A DNA stretch of 64,000 nucleotides from Ostreococcus lucimarinus (taxonomy: Eukaryota), in assembly GCA_000092065.1 (NCBI GenBank), contig CP000592.1. The stretch is one strand, 5' to 3'. The notes under the pieces are model-generated. The model did no database searches. It saw only the letters and a program-made list of their open reading frames with translations, and was not told the DNA's origin. Both the position numbers and the translations under genes were made by a program. Numbering within the stretch: position 1 is the first letter of the stretch; each line of letters begins with the position of its first letter. Positions 17,125-55,756 of the stretch are shown piece after piece.

Positions 17125-18561
17125 ATGGTTCGCGGTAAAGTCCTCGTCGTCGCCGGCTCCGACTCGGGCGGCGGCGCCGGCGTCCAAGCCGACGTCAAGG
17201 CGATCCTCGCCCACGGCGCCTTCGCCACGACCGCCATCACCGCGCTCACCGCTCAAAACACCACGGGCGTGCACGGCGTCCACGCCGCACCGTTGGAGTT
17301 CATCGAGGCGCAGATCGAGGCCGTGGTGACGGATCTACCGCCAGACGCGTGCAAGACGGGGATGCTGGCCAACGCGGCGACGACGCGCGCCGTCGCCGAC
17401 GCGATCGAACGACATCGATTGACCAACGTCGTCGTGGACACGGTGATGCTGGCGAAAGGCGGCGCGAGCCTGCTCGAAGCGGAGGCGCTGGAGGTGATGC
17501 GGGATCGATTGGCGCCGCTCGCGACGGTGATCACGCCAAACGTCCCGGAGGCGGCGGCGCTGCTAAACTTGAGCGAGGAAGAGTTCGTGATGGAGACGAT
17601 GGCGACGCGGGCGAAGGAGTTAGGGAAGTTAGGGTGTCAGTGGGTGTTACTTAAGGGTGGGCACGTCAAGGATGACGCGGAGATGTCGGTGGATTATTTG
17701 TACGAGGCGAACACGGGGAGGACGACGACGTTCTCGAGCGCGAGAATAGATACGAGGCACACTCACGGGACCGGGTGCACGCTCGCGAGCTCGATCGCGG
17801 CGTCGTTGGCGCAAAGGTATGACGTTCCTACGGCGGTGCATCGAGCGAAGAGGTACATCTCGGAGGCGATTCGAACGAGTCCGGGGTACGGCGCGGGACA
17901 CGGGCCGTTGAATCATTTGCCGTTTCACGCCGGCGCGGCGGCGCGTGGAAAGCGGTTCGATCCGCGATGTTTGAAACTTTATCTCGTCAGCAGTGAGGCG
18001 TTGACCATGGATAAGCTTCGACAGGCGCTCGAGGCGGGAGTGACGATTGTGCAGATGCGCGATAAGGATCCCTCGACGAGGGCCTTGATCGAACGCGCCA
18101 AGGCGATGAAGGCGGCGTGCGATGAATACGGCGTCCCGTTCATCGTCAACGATCGTGTCGACGTCGCCATCGCGTGTGACGCCGATGGTGTGCACTTGGG
18201 TCAGTCAGACATGACTTGCGCGGAGGCTCGACAAATTCTTGGTCCGAATAAATGGATCGGAGTGAGCTGTCGAGAGGTGTCTTTGGCGCGCCAAGCAAGC
18301 GCCGACGACGCCGATTACATAGGGTGCGGCGCGTGTTTCGGCACTAATTCCAAGGGTGACGCTAAAGTCATCGGCTTGGATGGTGTCGGGAAAGTTATCG
18401 CGGTAGCTCGCGAGCTTTCCTTACCAGTCGTCGCCATCGGGGGCGTCTCGCTCGAAAACGCCGCGTCTGTTCGAGCGACGGGCGCCGACGGAATAGCCGT
18501 CATTTCCGCCGTCGCCAACGCGGCGGACGTGAAAAAGGCGGTCCATAAGTTGCTGCATTAG
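17125..18561 (+). CDS. TH1: bifunctional hydroxymethylpyrimidine (phosphate) kinase / thiamine-phosphate synthase (ThiD-ThiE fusion, TH1-like)
   Basis: The N-terminal half (KVLVVAGSDSGGGAGVQADVKA..GMLANAATTRAV) is a ThiD/PfkB-type HMP-P kinase. The C-terminal half (VSSEALTMDKL..IVQMRDKD..VNDRVDVAIACDADGVHLGQSD..AIGGVS) is a ThiE TMP synthase. The first ATG in the ORF is at 17125. Confidence 0.9.
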   Translation: MVRGKVLVVAGSDSGGGAGVQADVKAILAHGAFATTAITALTAQNTTGVHGVHAAPLEFIEAQIEAVVTDLPPDACKTGMLANAATTRAVADAIERHRLTNVVVDTVMLAKGGASLLEAEALEVMRDRLAPLATVITPNVPEAAALLNLSEEEFVMETMATRAKELGKLGCQWVLLKGGHVKDDAEMSVDYLYEANTGRTTTFSSARIDTRHTHGTGCTLASSIAASLAQRYDVPTAVHRAKRYISEAIRTSPGYGAGHGPLNHLPFHAGAAARGKRFDPRCLKLYLVSSEALTMDKLRQALEAGVTIVQMRDKDPSTRALIERAKAMKAACDEYGVPFIVNDRVDVAIACDADGVHLGQSDMTCAEARQILGPNKWIGVSCREVSLARQASADDADYIGCGACFGTNSKGDAKVIGLDGVGKVIAVARELSLPVVAIGGVSLENAASVRATGADGIAVISAVANAADVKKAVHKLLH

Positions 18562-18600: not shown

Positions 18601-19188
18601 CTACGCGTGCGCGGCGAAGAAGTCACGTTCAAGACGAATCGCCTCGACGTAATTATCGACGGCGCGCTCATCCTCGATTTCTTCGGGTAATAACGACTCT
18701 AAACGACACGCGAGGGATTCCATCTCATCCCCACCGTACGCCTCGAACCATTCGGCGTACGGTGACGTCCGCGGGTCGGGAATTCCGTCTACACCCGCAT
18801 CCGCTCGCGTGAGAAAGTACCGACCGACGTACGCATACAGTCGCATGCACGGAATCATCCCGGCGACCAACTCGAGCGAAGATTTCCCGTGCAAAGACTC
18901 CAGAAACTCCACGTACGCCCGGCTCGCGGCGTGCACCTCGACGGCGTCCACGTCCACGCCCCACTTTTCACACGCCGCGGAGTGTAACTTCAGCTCGTCG
19001 AGCACGCCGCCGATGAGTTCGTGAAAGACTCTCTGCTCGTCGACGTCCGCGGCCAGGCGAAGCGCCTGCGCGTACGCTCGATTGAAATGAAACAAGAAGT
19101 ACGCGTCTTGCGACAGATAGCGAAGATACTTCTCGCGAGGGAGCTCCCCGGTGGCCATCTGATGCACGAACGACCCGCTGGCGGTCAT
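18601..19188 (-). CDS. tenA: TenA/thiaminase-II family protein (aminopyrimidine salvage); N-terminus may lie in an upstream exon
   Basis: The ORF (GELPREKYLRYLSQDAYFLFHFNRAYAQALRLAADV..) has the TenA/PqqC-like helical pattern. The frame upstream of ATG 19188 still encodes TenA-like residues (ALWSRPDVAKYVAE) but has no ATG before a stop. It is convergent with TH1, with only about 39 nt between stop codons. Confidence 0.75.
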   Translation of the reverse strand: MTASGSFVHQMATGELPREKYLRYLSQDAYFLFHFNRAYAQALRLAADVDEQRVFHELIGGVLDELKLHSAACEKWGVDVDAVEVHAASRAYVEFLESLHGKSSLELVAGMIPCMRLYAYVGRYFLTRADAGVDGIPDPRTSPYAEWFEAYGGDEMESLACRLESLLPEEIEDERAVDNYVEAIRLERDFFAAHA

Positions 19189-19930: not shown

Positions 19931-20134
19931 GCGCAGGCTGGACAAAACGTAATCACGCATTTCGAGCTCATCGGCTTGACGAATGCTGAATACGTAGGAA
20001 ACTCTTTGAGGTATACCACTTAACGCGGATCCAAAGTTGAAACCACTAAAACGGCCCCAAGAGTTTCCTGTGTATTCAACGTTCGTTAAGCCTATGAGCT
20101 TGAAATGCGTGATCGCGTTTTGTCCAGCCTGCGC
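19931..20134. repeat. inverted pair of an ~85-nt dispersed element (copy F 19931..20010 forward, copy G 20058..20134 reverse), spacer about 47 nt
   Basis: GCAGGCTGGACAAAACGTAATCACGCATTTCGAGCTCATCGGCTTGACGAATGCTGAATACGTAGGAAACTCTT recurs as its reverse complement about 50 nt downstream at roughly 85% identity. It shares the GGCTGGACA..CTCATnG..(T/C)(G/A)AATACGTAG(G/A)AAAC cores with the copies at 27178..27500, 43405..43455 and 53978..54055. Confidence 0.7.
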
Positions 20135-20311
20135 TTTCGGCGGCCGCCCGTGGTTTCCGCGGTCGGTGGTCGACCTCGCCTCGAAACCGGCGCCGACGAT
20201 CGGCCGCGCGAAACGAAACCGGGCGATCGATCGATCGACGATCGATGCGCGCGCGGCGCGTCGAACGCGTCCGCACACCGCGCTCGGCGAGTGGCTTCCG
20301 ACGACGCGCGA

Positions 20312-20400
20312 CGGCCGACGGCGCGCGAATCGAGCCTGAGAACACGTAAATCGTTTGAACTTGTATCGGGGTAATACCTGCGTAAGGACTGAGCCGGCGA
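20312..20400 (+). ncRNA. candidate thiamine pyrophosphate (TPP) riboswitch aptamer in the 5' leader of the SSS transporter gene
   Basis: Read directly: CCUGAGAACACGUAAAUCGUUUGAACUUGUAUCGGGGUAAUACCUGCGUAAGGACUGAGCC. It carries the J3-2 CUGAGA, the UUUGAAC(C/U)UG segment, a P5 hairpin CGGG-GUAAUA-CCUG (consensus CUGG-AUAAUG-CCAG) and CGUAAGGA (consensus CGUAGGGA). The changes preserve pairing (CUUG with UAAG; CGGG with CCUG via G-U). The transporter ATG is about 70 nt downstream at 20468. Confidence 0.65.
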
Positions 20401-20467
20401 ACGACGCGCGAGGGGTCGCGCGAACGACGAGGACGCGGGGGTTAGGGCAAATCCCGGAGAAACGACG

Positions 20468-22339
20468 ATGGCGAACTACGGGTGGTTGTACGCGCTGATA
20501 TCGCTGTACGGGGTCGCGTCCGGCGCGGCGGCGACGTTCGCGCACCGGCGAAATAAGGCGGCGGCGAACGACGCTGGGGACGCGATGCGGAACCACTTCG
20601 GCGGCGGGAAGGGACTCGGCGGCGTCGCGCTGTTTTTTACGCTCTCGGCGTCGCTGTTTTCGGCGTATTCCGTGGAAGGGATCGCGTGGGAGGCGTGGTT
20701 TAAGGGATGGTTCGCCACGCGATGGATTCCAGCGGGCGTCGGGGTGTACATGGGATTTTTGATCATGGCGCCGCGACTGAACGCGCTCGGAAAATTGCGA
20801 GGGTATCTCACGCTGAGCGAAGTCGTCTACGACAGGTTCAGCGCGCCGAATTCTCGGCATCAACTCACGGCGCACGCGCTGCGAGTGATCACCTGGGGGT
20901 GTTTGTTGCTTCCAATCTTCTGCTACCAAATTTCGCAGTTTGTGTCGATGGGTAAAATCGTCGAGGCGTTCACCGCCGGCGCCATCTCGGAGACGGGCGG
21001 GGTGTTGATCTTTGCCTTGATCATGATCGCCGTCGAGGCCGTCGGTGGTCTTCGTGCGGTGGCGTATACGGACATCATTCAAGGATGCATGCTCATCGTC
21101 GGTTCGCTGATCTTCTTCATCGCGAGCGGGGTGGAATTCGGTGGATTGTCGCGAGCGAAGGATTACTTCGCCGCGGCGTCACCCCCCAAGTTTCAAACCA
21201 TTCCCAAAACGGACGGGTCTTGGTCCATCATATCGTACACCTCGTTCACGCTTCGCGTGTCCGTCGCGGCGACGATGTTTCCGCACCTCGCCATGCGATT
21301 GTTCGTCGCGAAGGATCGTAAAATGCTCCAACGCGGTTTGGCGGGGATGAACTTTACCTTTTTCTGGGTCCAACTCTCCACCATGATCGCCGGTTGGACC
21401 GCGGTGTACGCCCTGCGTGATGTCGCCACTGTGGCGGACATCGGAAATCAACAATCAATCTTTGGAAAACTCGCACTCCAGCTGAAGAACGCTTCGGCGT
21501 TCGGGGACTTCTCCGCGTCGCTCTTGGTTCTCGCCGCCTTCGCGGCGATGATATCCACCGCCGACTCTGGTTTGCTCGCCTTCAGTACGATGTTTGTGCG
21601 CGACATTTACCAGCCCTACGTTCAAAAAGTGTTCCCAAAAGCGCGTGTCGATGGAAACGCGCTGAAAATCGTTGGATTGGTGTCCTCCCTCGCCGCTCTC
21701 GGTGTCGGTTTGGGGCTGTCCATCGTCAACCTCCGCGAAGGCAAACCCGACATCACTGGGTTGTTCTCCATTCAAACCGTCACCCCGATTCACGCCGTTC
21801 CAGCAGTATGGGGTGGGATCCACCTTCACTGGCTCTCCGGCGAAGCCGTCCTAGCCGGTATCGTGGCTGGTGTCATCTCCGGCTTGGTCATGGTTCTGGA
21901 CACCGAGTTCAACGTCAAGCGGAACCTCGGCCTCGATGAACACTCCACGGGGTGGAACACCGCATGCTTTGCGTTTTTGATAAACGTCGGCGTCGTCATT
22001 CTCGTCACACTCTTGGAAAAGTTTGTCGTCCCCGCCGCGAAATCCGCGGCGACCGCGCAAACGAACACGCTGTTCATCGGTAAAAAAGTGGACAAGATGC
22101 TCTCCAACCCGATCCCGTGGTTCTTCATGATTTTCACCTTGCTCGCGGCGTGTCCGTTCTGGTACAAGCCCGGGAGTCAAGTGAAATACGTCGGCGACAT
22201 GGCGGCGTGGGGGTTTACGAGCTTGTTCTTTTCCTTCATCCTCGCGCTTCAAGTATCGGCGATGTACATGTATCGCTGGGAAGATTTCGTCCCCGAAGGC
22301 GAAGACGAGAAATCCGTCGACAAGGCGGGTCAGGTGTGA
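20468..22339 (+). CDS. sodium:solute symporter family (SSF/SSS) transporter, putative thiamine or thiamine-precursor transporter
   Basis: 623 aa with about 13 hydrophobic transmembrane segments and the SSF-like pattern (GGGKGLGGVAL..SAYSVEG). It is riboswitch-associated and flanked by thiamine-metabolism genes. The substrate is an inference. Confidence 0.85.
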   Translation: MANYGWLYALISLYGVASGAAATFAHRRNKAAANDAGDAMRNHFGGGKGLGGVALFFTLSASLFSAYSVEGIAWEAWFKGWFATRWIPAGVGVYMGFLIMAPRLNALGKLRGYLTLSEVVYDRFSAPNSRHQLTAHALRVITWGCLLLPIFCYQISQFVSMGKIVEAFTAGAISETGGVLIFALIMIAVEAVGGLRAVAYTDIIQGCMLIVGSLIFFIASGVEFGGLSRAKDYFAAASPPKFQTIPKTDGSWSIISYTSFTLRVSVAATMFPHLAMRLFVAKDRKMLQRGLAGMNFTFFWVQLSTMIAGWTAVYALRDVATVADIGNQQSIFGKLALQLKNASAFGDFSASLLVLAAFAAMISTADSGLLAFSTMFVRDIYQPYVQKVFPKARVDGNALKIVGLVSSLAALGVGLGLSIVNLREGKPDITGLFSIQTVTPIHAVPAVWGGIHLHWLSGEAVLAGIVAGVISGLVMVLDTEFNVKRNLGLDEHSTGWNTACFAFLINVGVVILVTLLEKFVVPAAKSAATAQTNTLFIGKKVDKMLSNPIPWFFMIFTLLAACPFWYKPGSQVKYVGDMAAWGFTSLFFSFILALQVSAMYMYRWEDFVPEGEDEKSVDKAGQV

Positions 22340-22437: not shown

Positions 22438-23262
22438 CTACTCGTAGCTTTTTAGACTCGCCAGCGCGTCAAAGAATGCCACTTGGAAAGAAGCAGGTCC
22501 GGAAAAGTTCCCTAACCGAACAACGTCAGTCGCAATCCGTCTGTACACTAGGCACGAGGCTCGCAACGCTCTCGCATTCGCTAGTCCCGATCCAGGAACC
22601 GTCGCCGCCAGGAAGGCTCCGAGGCAACAACCCGCGCCAGAAAATTTCTGCAGAATCGGCGCATCGAACTCATGAACGGCTTCGTTTCCGGGCGCACCAT
22701 CGACCCGAGTTGATCGCGGTGTGGTAACATAATCCACGCTCCCAGTCATCACAATCATCGCGCCAAGCTTTTCCGATAGTTGATTCAGCGCGTCGAAAAC
22801 GTCTTTTTCCGCGCAGTCGCCGTCGGACGATTCCGGCGTAACGCTCAAATTCGCCCCAACGCTACCGTTCACAGCAAACAACTCAATCAACGCTTCGATT
22901 TCACTTCGATTTCCCTTCACCACAGTGCGCATCGGTCGCACATCGCTCGCGTCCCGAGCGACGGCGCCGCGCCGTTCCAACCACTCCTTTACCGTTCTCC
23001 CTCTCGTCTCCAGTCCACACCCCACGGGATCGACCACGACGTTTTGCGCGCTGAGCACGGCGTTTGCGATCTCCGCCGTCGTGGGCGTGCCGAAATTCAA
23101 CACGGTCACGTCGCAGAGCGATGCGGTGAGCGCGGCTTCCTCGTAGGTGGTGCATCCCATGCACGGTTTCGCACCGACGGCGAGCACGACGTCCGCGGCT
23201 TTGGACGCCGAGCACGCGTTCATGATGAGCTGAACCTTCGGACTCGCGCGCGCGTCGTCCAT
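22438..23262 (-). CDS. thiM: hydroxyethylthiazole kinase (ThiM)
   Basis: VQLIMNACSASKAADVVLAVGAKPCMGCTTYEEAA aligns with the ThiM N-terminus (LVHSITNNVV..LALGASPVMA), and the C-terminal GAGCCLGAFLAA matches the ThiM GAGC motif region. It is convergent with the transporter gene, with about 98 nt between stops. Confidence 0.85.
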   Translation of the reverse strand: MDDARASPKVQLIMNACSASKAADVVLAVGAKPCMGCTTYEEAALTASLCDVTVLNFGTPTTAEIANAVLSAQNVVVDPVGCGLETRGRTVKEWLERRGAVARDASDVRPMRTVVKGNRSEIEALIELFAVNGSVGANLSVTPESSDGDCAEKDVFDALNQLSEKLGAMIVMTGSVDYVTTPRSTRVDGAPGNEAVHEFDAPILQKFSGAGCCLGAFLAATVPGSGLANARALRASCLVYRRIATDVVRLGNFSGPASFQVAFFDALASLKSYE

Positions 23263-26892: not shown

Positions 26893-27177
26893 CAACGCAT
26901 CGGGATACTCCGCGTTCCTGTTCGTCGTCCTTCACCGTCAGTCATCGCGTTCGTCGTCCCATCGCGCGCGCGTTCGCCGCCAATCCTCGTCGCGATTGTC
27001 GCGCCCTCGCGTCGACCCACCGTCGCGTGGGCGTCTCTCGCGCGCCGCCCGTTCCCGGAACTTCGACGCTGTACGTCTTCATCGCGCGCGCGTCGGTCGT
27101 TCGCGCCGGTCTGCCGTCCGTCGTCGCGCCGCGTCACCGCGAGTCGGCGCGGTCGACCGATGGATGTCGTTACGCGC

Positions 27178-27500
27178 GGGCTGGACACGCCGCGCGCGTG
27201 CGATTCACACTCATCGACCTAAAATTCACTAAATACGTAGAAAACGACACAAGGTGCCATTGGGTTTGCTGGCGCGGGCTGGACACGCCGCGCGCGTGCG
27301 ATTCACACTCATGGACCTAAAATTCACTAAATACGTAGAAAACGACACAAGGTTCATTGTGCATTGCTTTGCCCACGAAGTTCTCATGGGTGTCGGGTCC
27401 GCCCCGTCCCGGGCGCGGGCTGGACACGGCGCGCGCGTGCGATTCACACTCATGGACCTAAAATTCACTAAATACGTAGAAAACGACACAAGGTTCATTG
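27178..27500 (+). repeat. three tandem copies (27178, 27275, 27417) of the ~85-nt element GGGCTGGACACG(C/G)CGCGCGCGTGCGATTCACACTCAT(C/G)GACCTAAAATTCACTAAATACGTAGAAAACGACACAAGG
   Basis: Direct reading shows three near-identical copies, with periods of 97 and 142 nt and unique spacers between them. All are in forward orientation, and the last ends about 110 nt before the RPL26 ATG. This is the same family as the copies at 19931..20134, 43405..43455 and 53978..54055. Confidence 0.8.
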
Positions 27501-27612
27501 TGCATTGTCCCATTGGGTTTGCATTGACGGATCATCGAAAAACACACACGGCCCGCACGGCGCGCCCGTCGTCGCGCCCCGCGCCCGCCTCGCCGTCTTT
27601 CGCCGACGCCCG

Positions 27613-43265: not shown

Positions 43266-43404
43266 CCGCGCAGCCGCGCCGCCGCCGCGCGTCAATATCA
43301 TAGTCCAATCGCCTGTTAACTACGCACCCAACCCTCGAATCGTGATTCGTCCGACCCCCCCCCGACGCGCGCGCGCGCCACACCCCACGGGTCTCGCGGT
43401 TTTC

Positions 43405-43455
43405 CCACTCATGGGCTCACGCGTCACTAAATGCGCAGAAAACGACGCAAAGTTT
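43405..43455 (+). repeat. partial or diverged copy of the ~85-nt upstream element (CACTCATGGGCTCACGCGTCACTAAATGCGCAGAAAACGACGCAA)
   Basis: It shares the CACTCATGG and TCACTAAAT(A/G)CG(T/C)AGAAAACGAC(A/G)CAA cores with the 27178..27500 copies. It lies about 80 nt upstream of the RimO ATG and points toward it. Confidence 0.4.
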
Positions 43456-43531
43456 TCGCACCGCGCGACACTGTGACGTTGTCCCGACTGAGGTTTCGCG
43501 ATTCGCGCGCCGCACACGCGCTCGCGTCGCC

Positions 43532-53701: not shown

Positions 53702-53977
53702 GAACCGCGCCTCGCGCGCGCGTCCGCGTCCGCGCCTCGCGCGCGCGACCGCCGCCTTCGTTCGCGCGCGCGCGCCTTCGCACGCGCGACGCCGCGACGG
53801 TCGACCGACCGACGATCGCGCGTCGCGTCGTCCCGCGTCGCGTCGGCGCGCGACGCGACGGCGACCGGCGATCCGCGACCCGCGGTTTACACACGCCTCG
53901 AGAGATCCGCTTCGATGGGCGAAACGGGGACTCGTATACGGAGCGGAGGCCCGCGCGCGCGCGGCGACCGCCCGAGG

Positions 53978-54055
53978 CGCGGGCTGGACCCCGCGCGCGC
54001 GTGGGTGCCGCACACATAGGTTTAAAAATCACTGAATACGTAGAAAACCGTTCCA
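53978..54055 (+). repeat. diverged copy of the ~85-nt upstream element (GGGCTGGACCCCGCGCGCGCGTGGGTGCCGCACACATAGGTTTAAAAATCACTGAATACGTAGAAAACCG)
   Basis: It has the same cores and order as the 27178..27500 copies. It lies about 200 nt upstream of the polyubiquitin ATG, points toward it, and sits in the divergent bL27/polyubiquitin intergenic region. Confidence 0.5.
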
Positions 54056-54107
54056 GGTGCGTCGACCCCGCGGCCCGGCCATCGCAATCCACCCCCCCTG
54101 TTTTTGA

Positions 54108-55756
<1,649 letters not shown>

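Follow-up and report, generated by a model that had tools for sequence, protein, structure and literature searches.

Ostreococcus is a textbook case of extreme genome compaction, with intergenic regions of less than 200 bp, and is to our knowledge the most compact free-living eukaryote. Its transposable elements are thought to be confined mainly to two outlier chromosomes. The described systems closest to the repeat reported here are MITEs (Tourist and Stowaway, and the promoter-preferring mPing), Helitrons and other non-autonomous rolling-circle elements, promoters that are mobile or derived from transposable elements, and the introner elements of Micromonas. Like the introners, the repeat is a short non-autonomous sequence that has spread within one lineage of a compact prasinophyte genome. 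Unlike them, its copies are intergenic instead of intronic and have no delimiting splice sites; introners are said, after Huff et al. 2016, to have TIRs and target-site duplications (TSDs).

The repeat was found in a 64-kb stretch of Ostreococcus lucimarinus DNA (the window), where the evidence points to a young, unstable sequence of mobile type rather than to a conserved promoter module.

Copies and anatomy of the repeat in the window

Three intronless ORFs of the window (XP_001420601, an SSS transporter; XP_001420607; and one RimO entry) were exact matches to O. lucimarinus CCE9901 proteins on a 538,963-bp chromosome. Genes are densely packed, and the GC content ranges from 51 to 68% (2-kb windows). 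Eight copies of the repeat were found in the window, at five sites. The first-pass annotation had reported at least seven; all the copies that it listed were present, and the eighth, at 10764-10850 on the minus strand, was missing from its list. The 15-nt core RAATACGTAGRAAAC (up to 2 mismatches) occurred nine times in the window, against 0.23 expected, and none of 100 shuffles reached nine.

Upstream of RPL26, three copies on the plus strand form direct repeats that are 91-99% identical pairwise. Copy 1 (27174..27260; repeat search, nhmmer E=2.8e-20) has the core order GCGGGCTGGAC ... CTCAT ... AAATACGTAGAAAAC ... CAAGG. Copy 2 (27272..27399) consists of a core (27272-27358) and a 3' tail (TTCATTGTGCATTGCTTTGCCC...GGGTGTCGGGTCC), and the two move together in wild strains (128-nt HSPs covering 27272-27399 in contigs L026, L028 and L039). 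Copy 3 (27413..27499) ends approximately 113 nt before the RPL26 ATG (27613). Just 3' of these copies, at 27500-27545 and in the tails, short GCATTG / CCATTGGGTTTGC motifs (reverse CCAAT boxes) recur. In L012, an unrelated site, a GCATTGCTTTGC motif likewise follows the copies, so that CCAAT-like boxes may be part of the 3' tail.

The copy at the polyubiquitin locus (53977..54063, plus strand) is located in the gap between bL27 (minus strand, ATG 53701) and polyubiquitin (plus strand, ATG 54259), and is approximately 70-75% identical to the RPL26 copies. Just upstream of it, there is an 85-nt indel polymorphism (53877-53961) of a sequence unrelated to the repeat; the window and L029 have these 85 nt, whereas L011, L020 and L035 lack them. 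The polyubiquitin gene itself (54243-55695) is built of 228-nt repeats; fewer units were called in wild contigs, for example L065, and the number of units may be collapsed in assemblies or polymorphic.

Two copies form an inverted pair (left arm 19931..20016, plus strand; right arm 20048..20134, minus strand) in the gap between a minus-strand ORF and an SSS transporter gene with a TPP riboswitch. The 3' ends of both copies face each other, and the repeat search returned them as 81-nt arms, 86% complementary, with 52 nt between. The TPP riboswitch aptamer (20301-20406, plus strand) matched RF00059 with 29.6 bits, below the gathering score of 54.3 (E=8e-4 in a 601-nt search), and has the cores CUGAGA and ACCUG...UAAUACC...GCGUAAGGA. 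The SSS transporter (20468-22339) follows downstream of it, within a thiamine gene cluster that also holds ThiD/E (~17125-18561), TenA (18601-19188, minus strand) and ThiM (22438-23262, minus strand).

The two remaining copies are old and diverged. One lies between a minus-strand gene (ATG 43301) and RimO (ATG 43532) on the plus strand (nhmmer E=5e-11); the first-pass annotation had found it in diverged form at 43405..43455, and its true extent is longer, 43371..43457. The other (10764..10850, minus strand) lies between a minus-strand repeat-containing ORF and a WD40 gene (plus strand, start 11130). It was found with a profile made from the seven-copy alignment (nhmmer E = 2.5e-5, and 9e-15 in a second run), and its position is kept in L010, a 95%-identical lineage. 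Directly downstream of this copy, a 38-nt unit is repeated in tandem approximately 14 times (10221-10745); this array lies inside or adjoins the minus-strand ORF 9854-10660 and could not be aligned between the window and L010.

The core of the repeat is approximately 85 nt long (87 nt in coordinates), and the full unit, with a variable 3' tail of defined alpha, beta or gamma type, approximately 100-140 nt. The 5' terminus is sharp, (G)CAGGCTGGAC (on the other strand GTCCAGCCTG(C); also given as GCAGGCTGGAC), and the 3' end is ragged. From 5' to 3', the terminus is followed by a GC-rich near-palindrome, a CTCAT box and a AATACGTAGAAAAC box. The blocks common to the seven-copy alignment are GGCTGGAC, CTCAT and AATACGTAG.AAAC, and the consensus of 70 distinct aligned copies is GCAGGCTGGACAAAACGCGATCGCGATTTCGGCACTCATAGATCTAAATCACGGTAAATACGTAGAAAACTCGACGAGAATAGGTTT. 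The repeat also contains a TACGTA core (bZIP-type) and TATA-like runs (TAAAT/TAAAAT).

The retention of three cores, noted in the first-pass annotation, was confirmed among the independent window copies, with 62-93% identity in the cores against 37-65% in the rest, a contrast subject to ascertainment because the copies were partly found via those cores. For the metagenome copies described below, core conservation is there by construction, since they were selected through two of the three cores. In the copies free of this bias (RimO, 10764-10850 and the right arm of the inverted pair) the cores are decaying. Between loci, the copies from wild genomes are 75-96% identical and those of the window 47-78%; by these values the window's own copies are older than the metagenome copies.

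Distribution among sites, strains and species

Metagenomes (JGI) were scanned with the strict pattern GGCTGGAC-N38-48-RAATACGTAGRAAAC, which gave 41 contigs. The RPL26, riboswitch and ubiquitin loci of the window accounted for 17 of these. Two further contigs, L008 and L010, belong to the 95%-identical lineage and correspond to the left end of the window, and the remaining ones represent approximately 10 other sites. The neighbour genes at the other sites have O. lucimarinus orthologues on chromosomes of 366, 783, 702, 466, 693 and 362 kb; since these are six other chromosomes, the family is dispersed genome-wide, and the idea that it is clustered locally on the chromosome of the window was dropped. 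In total the repeat is placed at 15 or more sites on at least 7 chromosomes, and from one site to the next the flanks are not homologous. No common function links the neighbours, which include a heme oxygenase (XP_001422256), Med14 (XP_001418698), an alpha/beta hydrolase, a Sel1-repeat protein, RBM39, an ATAD2-like AAA protein and a bZIP-like protein; XP_001419180 was an exact match. Many sites carry head-to-tail arrays with units of 98-142 nt, and an inverted pair was seen once. A viral origin was also considered and rejected, the strict pattern having no match in IMG/VR.

The profile and the scan bear out the first-pass annotation in that short non-coding elements of one true family lie in the intergenic DNA 5' of genes. 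Its author had not recognised a described element, and our searches of the literature on Ostreococcus promoter motifs and transposable elements, and with the core sequences, found no description either. The repeat family is real and, as far as could be found, previously undescribed.

For comparison between species, syntenic loci were identified via orthologues of the AMP-binding gene in O. tauri (L046) and two other Ostreococcus species (L047 and L048; 75-79% protein identity). In all three, RPL26 is head-to-head with the AMP-binding gene and the SSS transporter is nearby. A profile search of their RPL26 and thiamine-transporter loci gave nothing at E<=1, and nhmmer on the three orthologous RPL26 upstream regions alone (1 kb) gave nothing at E<=1000. 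Neighbour proteins were looked up for seven of the approximately 10 extra sites, and none of these sites came from outside the O. lucimarinus-type clade. Within this comparison, the repeat is specific to the O. lucimarinus lineage.

Across species, the ~40 nt that immediately precede the RPL26 ATG (CTCGCCGTCTTTCGCCGACGCC) show conservation. The RPL26 array is located more than 100 nt upstream of the ATG and thus upstream of this stretch, and the gap between the AMP-binding gene and RPL26 measures 480-720 nt in O. lucimarinus versus approximately 290-375 nt in the other species. A shared core-promoter/TSS module, one of the examples suggested in the first-pass annotation, is not supported by these data: at the syntenic loci neither O. 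tauri nor L047 nor L048 has the repeat, the conserved RPL26 sequence is downstream of it, and its neighbour genes have no common function. The RPL26 promoter of L047 does contain AAATACGTAAAG and TAAAAATCAC, noticed by eye, a resemblance that the profile did not detect. Directly before the RPL26 ATG, a pyrimidine-rich sequence, CTCGCCGTCT(T/C)TC..CGACGCC, is conserved between O. lucimarinus (27570-27612) and O. tauri (L046, 9713-9760) and is likely to be the start-site/5'UTR region of RPL26.

After H2B, the wild scaffold L050 (14518-21872) continues with Sec23, a GNAT-bromodomain gene and a PHD gene and not with AMP-binding/RPL26/MCM8, which is either a structural variant or a chimeric scaffold. 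A Sec23-like gene also adjoins the AMP-binding gene in the more distant species L048.

Copy number varies between closely related strains. Among contigs 98.6-99.9% identical to the window, RPL26 is preceded by 1, 2 or 3 copies. One or two inverted pairs are present at the riboswitch locus (the whole pair is doubled in L044 and L053), 1 or 2 copies at the ubiquitin locus (2 in L029) and, in ten strains, 1 or 2 copies at site F, which XP_001419180 and RBM39 flank. Three unrelated types of spacer separate the copies of site F, and two of these types, alpha and beta, recur at other loci; this indicates ectopic exchange or repeated acquisition beside an existing copy. At the site of copy 10764-10850, the riboswitch and RPL26 sites and site F, every O. 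lucimarinus-type strain examined has kept at least one copy.

In L008 and L010 a copy of the young subfamily, 88-90% identical to copies at other loci, lies approximately 61 nt upstream of the ATG that matches position 5311 of the window, on the opposite strand; the window has none there. In this tail-to-head gap, 99 nt of the window (5162-5260) are replaced by 405 unrelated nt in L008 (4558-4962). No clean pair of empty and filled sites was recovered. By eye, the 405-nt stretch also holds another copy, which is degenerate (GGCAGGCTGGAAAAACC...CGCTCATC).

Between the window lineage and L010, the copy at 10764-10850 is 84% identical and the adjacent intergenic DNA 92%, and at site F the copy of one strain is far more diverged than its flanks (95.6-98.2% identical). 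Judged from these alignments, orthologous copies diverge faster than their flanks, and no evidence of purifying selection on them was seen. The first-pass annotation had favoured functional constraint over recent spread. This preference was not upheld, in view of the high identity (80-96%) of wild copies at different loci, the absence of the repeat from the promoters of three sister species, the polymorphic copy number and the pace at which orthologous copies outrun adjacent DNA.

Gene context and transcription

Site classes and gap counts were made by hand from ORF and gene calls. Where both flanks were known, 11 of 13 sites were divergent, 2 were tandem and none was convergent. All five window sites are head-to-head: the repeat-containing ORF (minus) and WD40 (plus), the ORF (minus) and SSS transporter (plus), AMP-binding (minus) and RPL26 (plus), the minus-strand gene and RimO (plus), and bL27 (minus) and polyubiquitin (plus). 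The divergent sites outside the window are B, C, D, F, G and J; A and K (L008) are tail-to-head. Within the window the repeat occupies approximately 5 of 8 divergent gaps and none of approximately 20 other gaps. From these gene calls, the robust rule is location in head-to-head (bidirectional-promoter) gaps, almost exclusively.

Orientation follows no such rule. According to the first-pass annotation, every copy points toward the downstream start codon, which is so inside the window, though uninformatively, since in a divergent gap either orientation faces a start codon. Ten divergent sites show only one orientation; the nearer gene is the one ahead at 6 of them and the one behind at 3, and at 1 both are equally far away. 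In the two tandem gaps the copy points toward the ATG at site A and away from it in L008, where, as in L010, it aims at the 3' end of the preceding gene. In L040, 47 nt separate the array from the gene behind it and 673 nt from the one ahead, and at site F only 13 nt lie between the 5' end of the copy and the ATG of the gene behind it. L008/L010, L040 and site F are thus counter-orientated, and neither orientation nor distance to the start codon (13-673 nt) is fixed, as L008, L040, site F and the inverted pair demonstrate.

Some copies are located only 13-60 nt from start codons, so transcription of those genes must start in the repeat or pass through it. A Tara unigene for RimO starts approximately 98 nt before the ATG, inside the repeat. 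As near-ATG copies are necessarily transcribed or traversed, they probably contribute promoter or 5'UTR sequence. A plant snRNA-type promoter (USE+TATA) was considered as well and rejected: TCCCACTCATGG in the RimO copy resembles a USE, but the TATA-like run follows at approximately 12 nt and not at 23-34 nt.

Interpretation and comparison with known elements

The features that define known classes of mobile elements were searched for. In solo copies, the best inverted match of the 12-nt 5' terminus in the sequence 70-240 nt downstream was no better than that in shuffles (p 0.07-1.0), which gave no sign of TIRs; only the pair at the riboswitch locus matched, and its 'arms' are two whole copies. 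Candidate TIRs noticed by eye, GGGCTGGAC ... GTCCGCCC at RPL26 and GTGCAGG ... CCCTGCAC in beta-type units, failed the shuffle control. Inspection of the flanks found no clear TSDs, the 3' boundary being ragged; the junctions at site F share only CAG or GTGTGCAG, which is also part of the repeat. A tRNA-derived SINE was rejected (no tRNA by ARAGORN, no Rfam match at E<=10, and a B box resemblance of only 7/11 by eye), and the tails are of alpha, beta or gamma type, with no A-rich or simple-repeat 3' tail. Canonical Helitron termini (5'-TC ... CTRR-3') and an A|T target were absent by inspection, and the flanking bases vary. With no TIRs, no TSDs clear on inspection, no A-tail and no Helitron termini, the repeat is not classed with the MITEs, SINEs or Helitrons. 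The suggestion of a domesticated SINE or MITE, made as a fallback in the first-pass annotation, came nearer to the findings than its first choice did, but the features that define either class were looked for without success, and any domestication is hypothetical.

The head-to-tail arrays with polymorphic copy number are a minisatellite trait. Dispersal to at least 7 chromosomes makes a minisatellite alone insufficient, and a purely local duplication of this type, in which the likeness between loci would be due to chance or to ancient shared promoter motifs, is scarcely credible. It would account for the arrays of variable copy number at several sites; against it stand the 80-96% identity between units of 85-140 nt whose sites lie on different chromosomes and have unrelated flanks, and the same spacer types at different loci. 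We also regard as very improbable that the repeats are transcribed units, either a small non-coding RNA gene or its relic (snoRNA-like, another Pol II/III transcript or a dead snoRNA retrocopy). A study of medium-size RNAs in O. tauri discarded reads on repeats of 10-15 copies, which were read as truncated snoRNA retrocopies (PMC7671301), and this precedent speaks for such an origin, as do the sharp 5' end and the resemblance of the head-to-tail clusters to polycistronic snoRNA clusters of plants and algae. The RNA searches, however, speak against it. Rfam gave no match at gathering thresholds for the whole window and none at E<=10 on the arrays, on either strand; ARAGORN found no tRNA; single copies folded no better than shuffles on both strands; RNAalifold predicted no consensus pair for 23 diverse copies; and inspection of the copies revealed no C/D or H/ACA boxes, T-run terminator or A-tail. 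In the two palindromic helices that were named explicitly, pairing reaches only 71% and 63%, and the covariation is modest and, by the tool's own warning, not decisive. The better paired of them (71%) is the AAAAC-GC-rich-GTTTT near-palindrome, which starts 4 nt inside the terminus and in which 4 of 8 pairs have changed on both sides. A joint shuffle control of this near-palindrome and the CTCAT helix (2-5 of 500 for four of five measures, 103 of 500 for the fifth) is not decisive.

A stronger contender, though still unlikely in our opinion, is a bidirectional promoter or upstream activating cassette, possibly derived from a transposable element and co-opted. It would recruit a transcription factor (e.g. 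a bZIP protein on TACGTA) and/or give TATA-like and start-site sequence to one or both flanking genes, with tandem copies tuning expression. Such a role would fit the placement almost exclusively in divergent promoter regions, cores conserved above background, copies so near to start codons (13-60 nt) that they must be transcribed or promoter sequence, at least one copy retained at each examined site in all O. lucimarinus-type strains, the 5' end of the RimO unigene inside the repeat and the two motifs seen by eye in the RPL26 promoter of L047. It fits poorly with the absence of the repeat from three sister species, in which the proximal RPL26 promoter is conserved without it, with variable distance (13-673 nt) and orientation, with 1-3 copies at an essential, highly expressed gene (RPL26), and with heterogeneous neighbours and orthologous copies that outpace their flanks; the profile, moreover, missed the resemblance in L047. 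The comparative tests lend no support to a conserved promoter function, while a contribution to promoters is plausible. A bolder variant appears improbable to us: a self-propagating bidirectional-promoter cassette, that is, a mobile unit of ~100 bp that enters beside its own kind or in nucleosome-free head-to-head gaps, gives start or factor sites in both directions and by its rapidly varying copy number tunes the promoter strength of unrelated genes (RPL26, ubiquitin, the thiamine transporter) in natural populations.

The reading we favour, with moderate confidence, is a lineage-specific, non-autonomous repeat of no recognised class, mobile or recombining, for which bidirectional promoter gaps are either a tolerated or a targeted location. 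This reading is argued for by the dispersal, the restriction to one lineage, the unstable copy number, the gain in L008/L010, the divergence of copies faster than flanks, the conserved RPL26 promoter downstream of the array, the unrelated neighbours and the bias to divergent gaps. We count against it the lack of TIRs, clear TSDs, a poly-A tail and Helitron ends in the copies inspected and of a clean empty site among the strains, as well as the start of the RimO unigene inside the repeat. Core conservation and retention at four sites also count against it, since they are equally expected of a functional cis-element.

As a mobile or recombining repeat, it would have been seeded at new sites by a trans-acting or recombinational mechanism, after which unequal crossing-over and ectopic gene conversion would have added and removed copies and kept them alike. 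Copies may persist in divergent gaps because these are the only places that tolerate ~100 extra bp in a genome so compact (intergenic regions <200 bp), or because open chromatin is the preferred target. Any promoter or 5'UTR contribution (TACGTA, TAAAT/TAAAAT) would be a by-product and not a conserved function.

A repeat that has spread on ordinary chromosomes, lies almost exclusively in bidirectional promoter gaps and varies in copy number between near-identical wild strains would be a marker of very recent genome dynamics in natural populations, and it would explain the recurrent assembly breaks at its loci. It would also serve as a natural experiment on the amount and the kind of additional DNA that a minimal eukaryotic promoter can tolerate or put to use. 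If the copies carry promoter activity, they would be useful short parts for genetic engineering of Ostreococcus.

Among the described systems, TE-derived and mobile promoters share with the repeat its location in promoter regions of unrelated genes, its motifs resembling transcription factor sites (TACGTA, TATA-like) and the necessity that some copies are 5'UTR or promoter sequence. The repeat differs from them in being known here from its sequence, with no sign of purifying selection on orthologous copies. Like MITEs (Tourist/Stowaway, and mPing with its preference for promoters), it is a short, non-coding, multi-copy sequence whose subfamilies differ in age; it is confined to one lineage, lies near the 5' ends of genes, causes breaks in assemblies and is present in one lineage and missing in a close one, an insertion polymorphism, though with no clean empty site. 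Unlike MITEs, it has no TIRs in solo copies and no TSD recognisable by inspection, has one sharp and one ragged end, and forms head-to-tail arrays. With Helitrons and other non-autonomous rolling-circle elements it shares asymmetric ends, the lack of TIRs and of clear TSDs and what may be a subterminal palindrome, GC-rich and 5-20 nt inside one terminus, and, as in rolling-circle arrays, it forms head-to-tail multimers in which new units are found directly beside an existing unit; in contrast to Helitrons it has no 5'-TC, CTRR-3' or A|T target, and the palindrome is only ~71% paired across copies. Given the sharp 5' end, the subterminal near-palindrome, the ragged 3' end, the multimers and the units beside old ones, the repeat would be most like a one-ended, rolling-circle-type element or an array-forming repeat spread by ectopic recombination.
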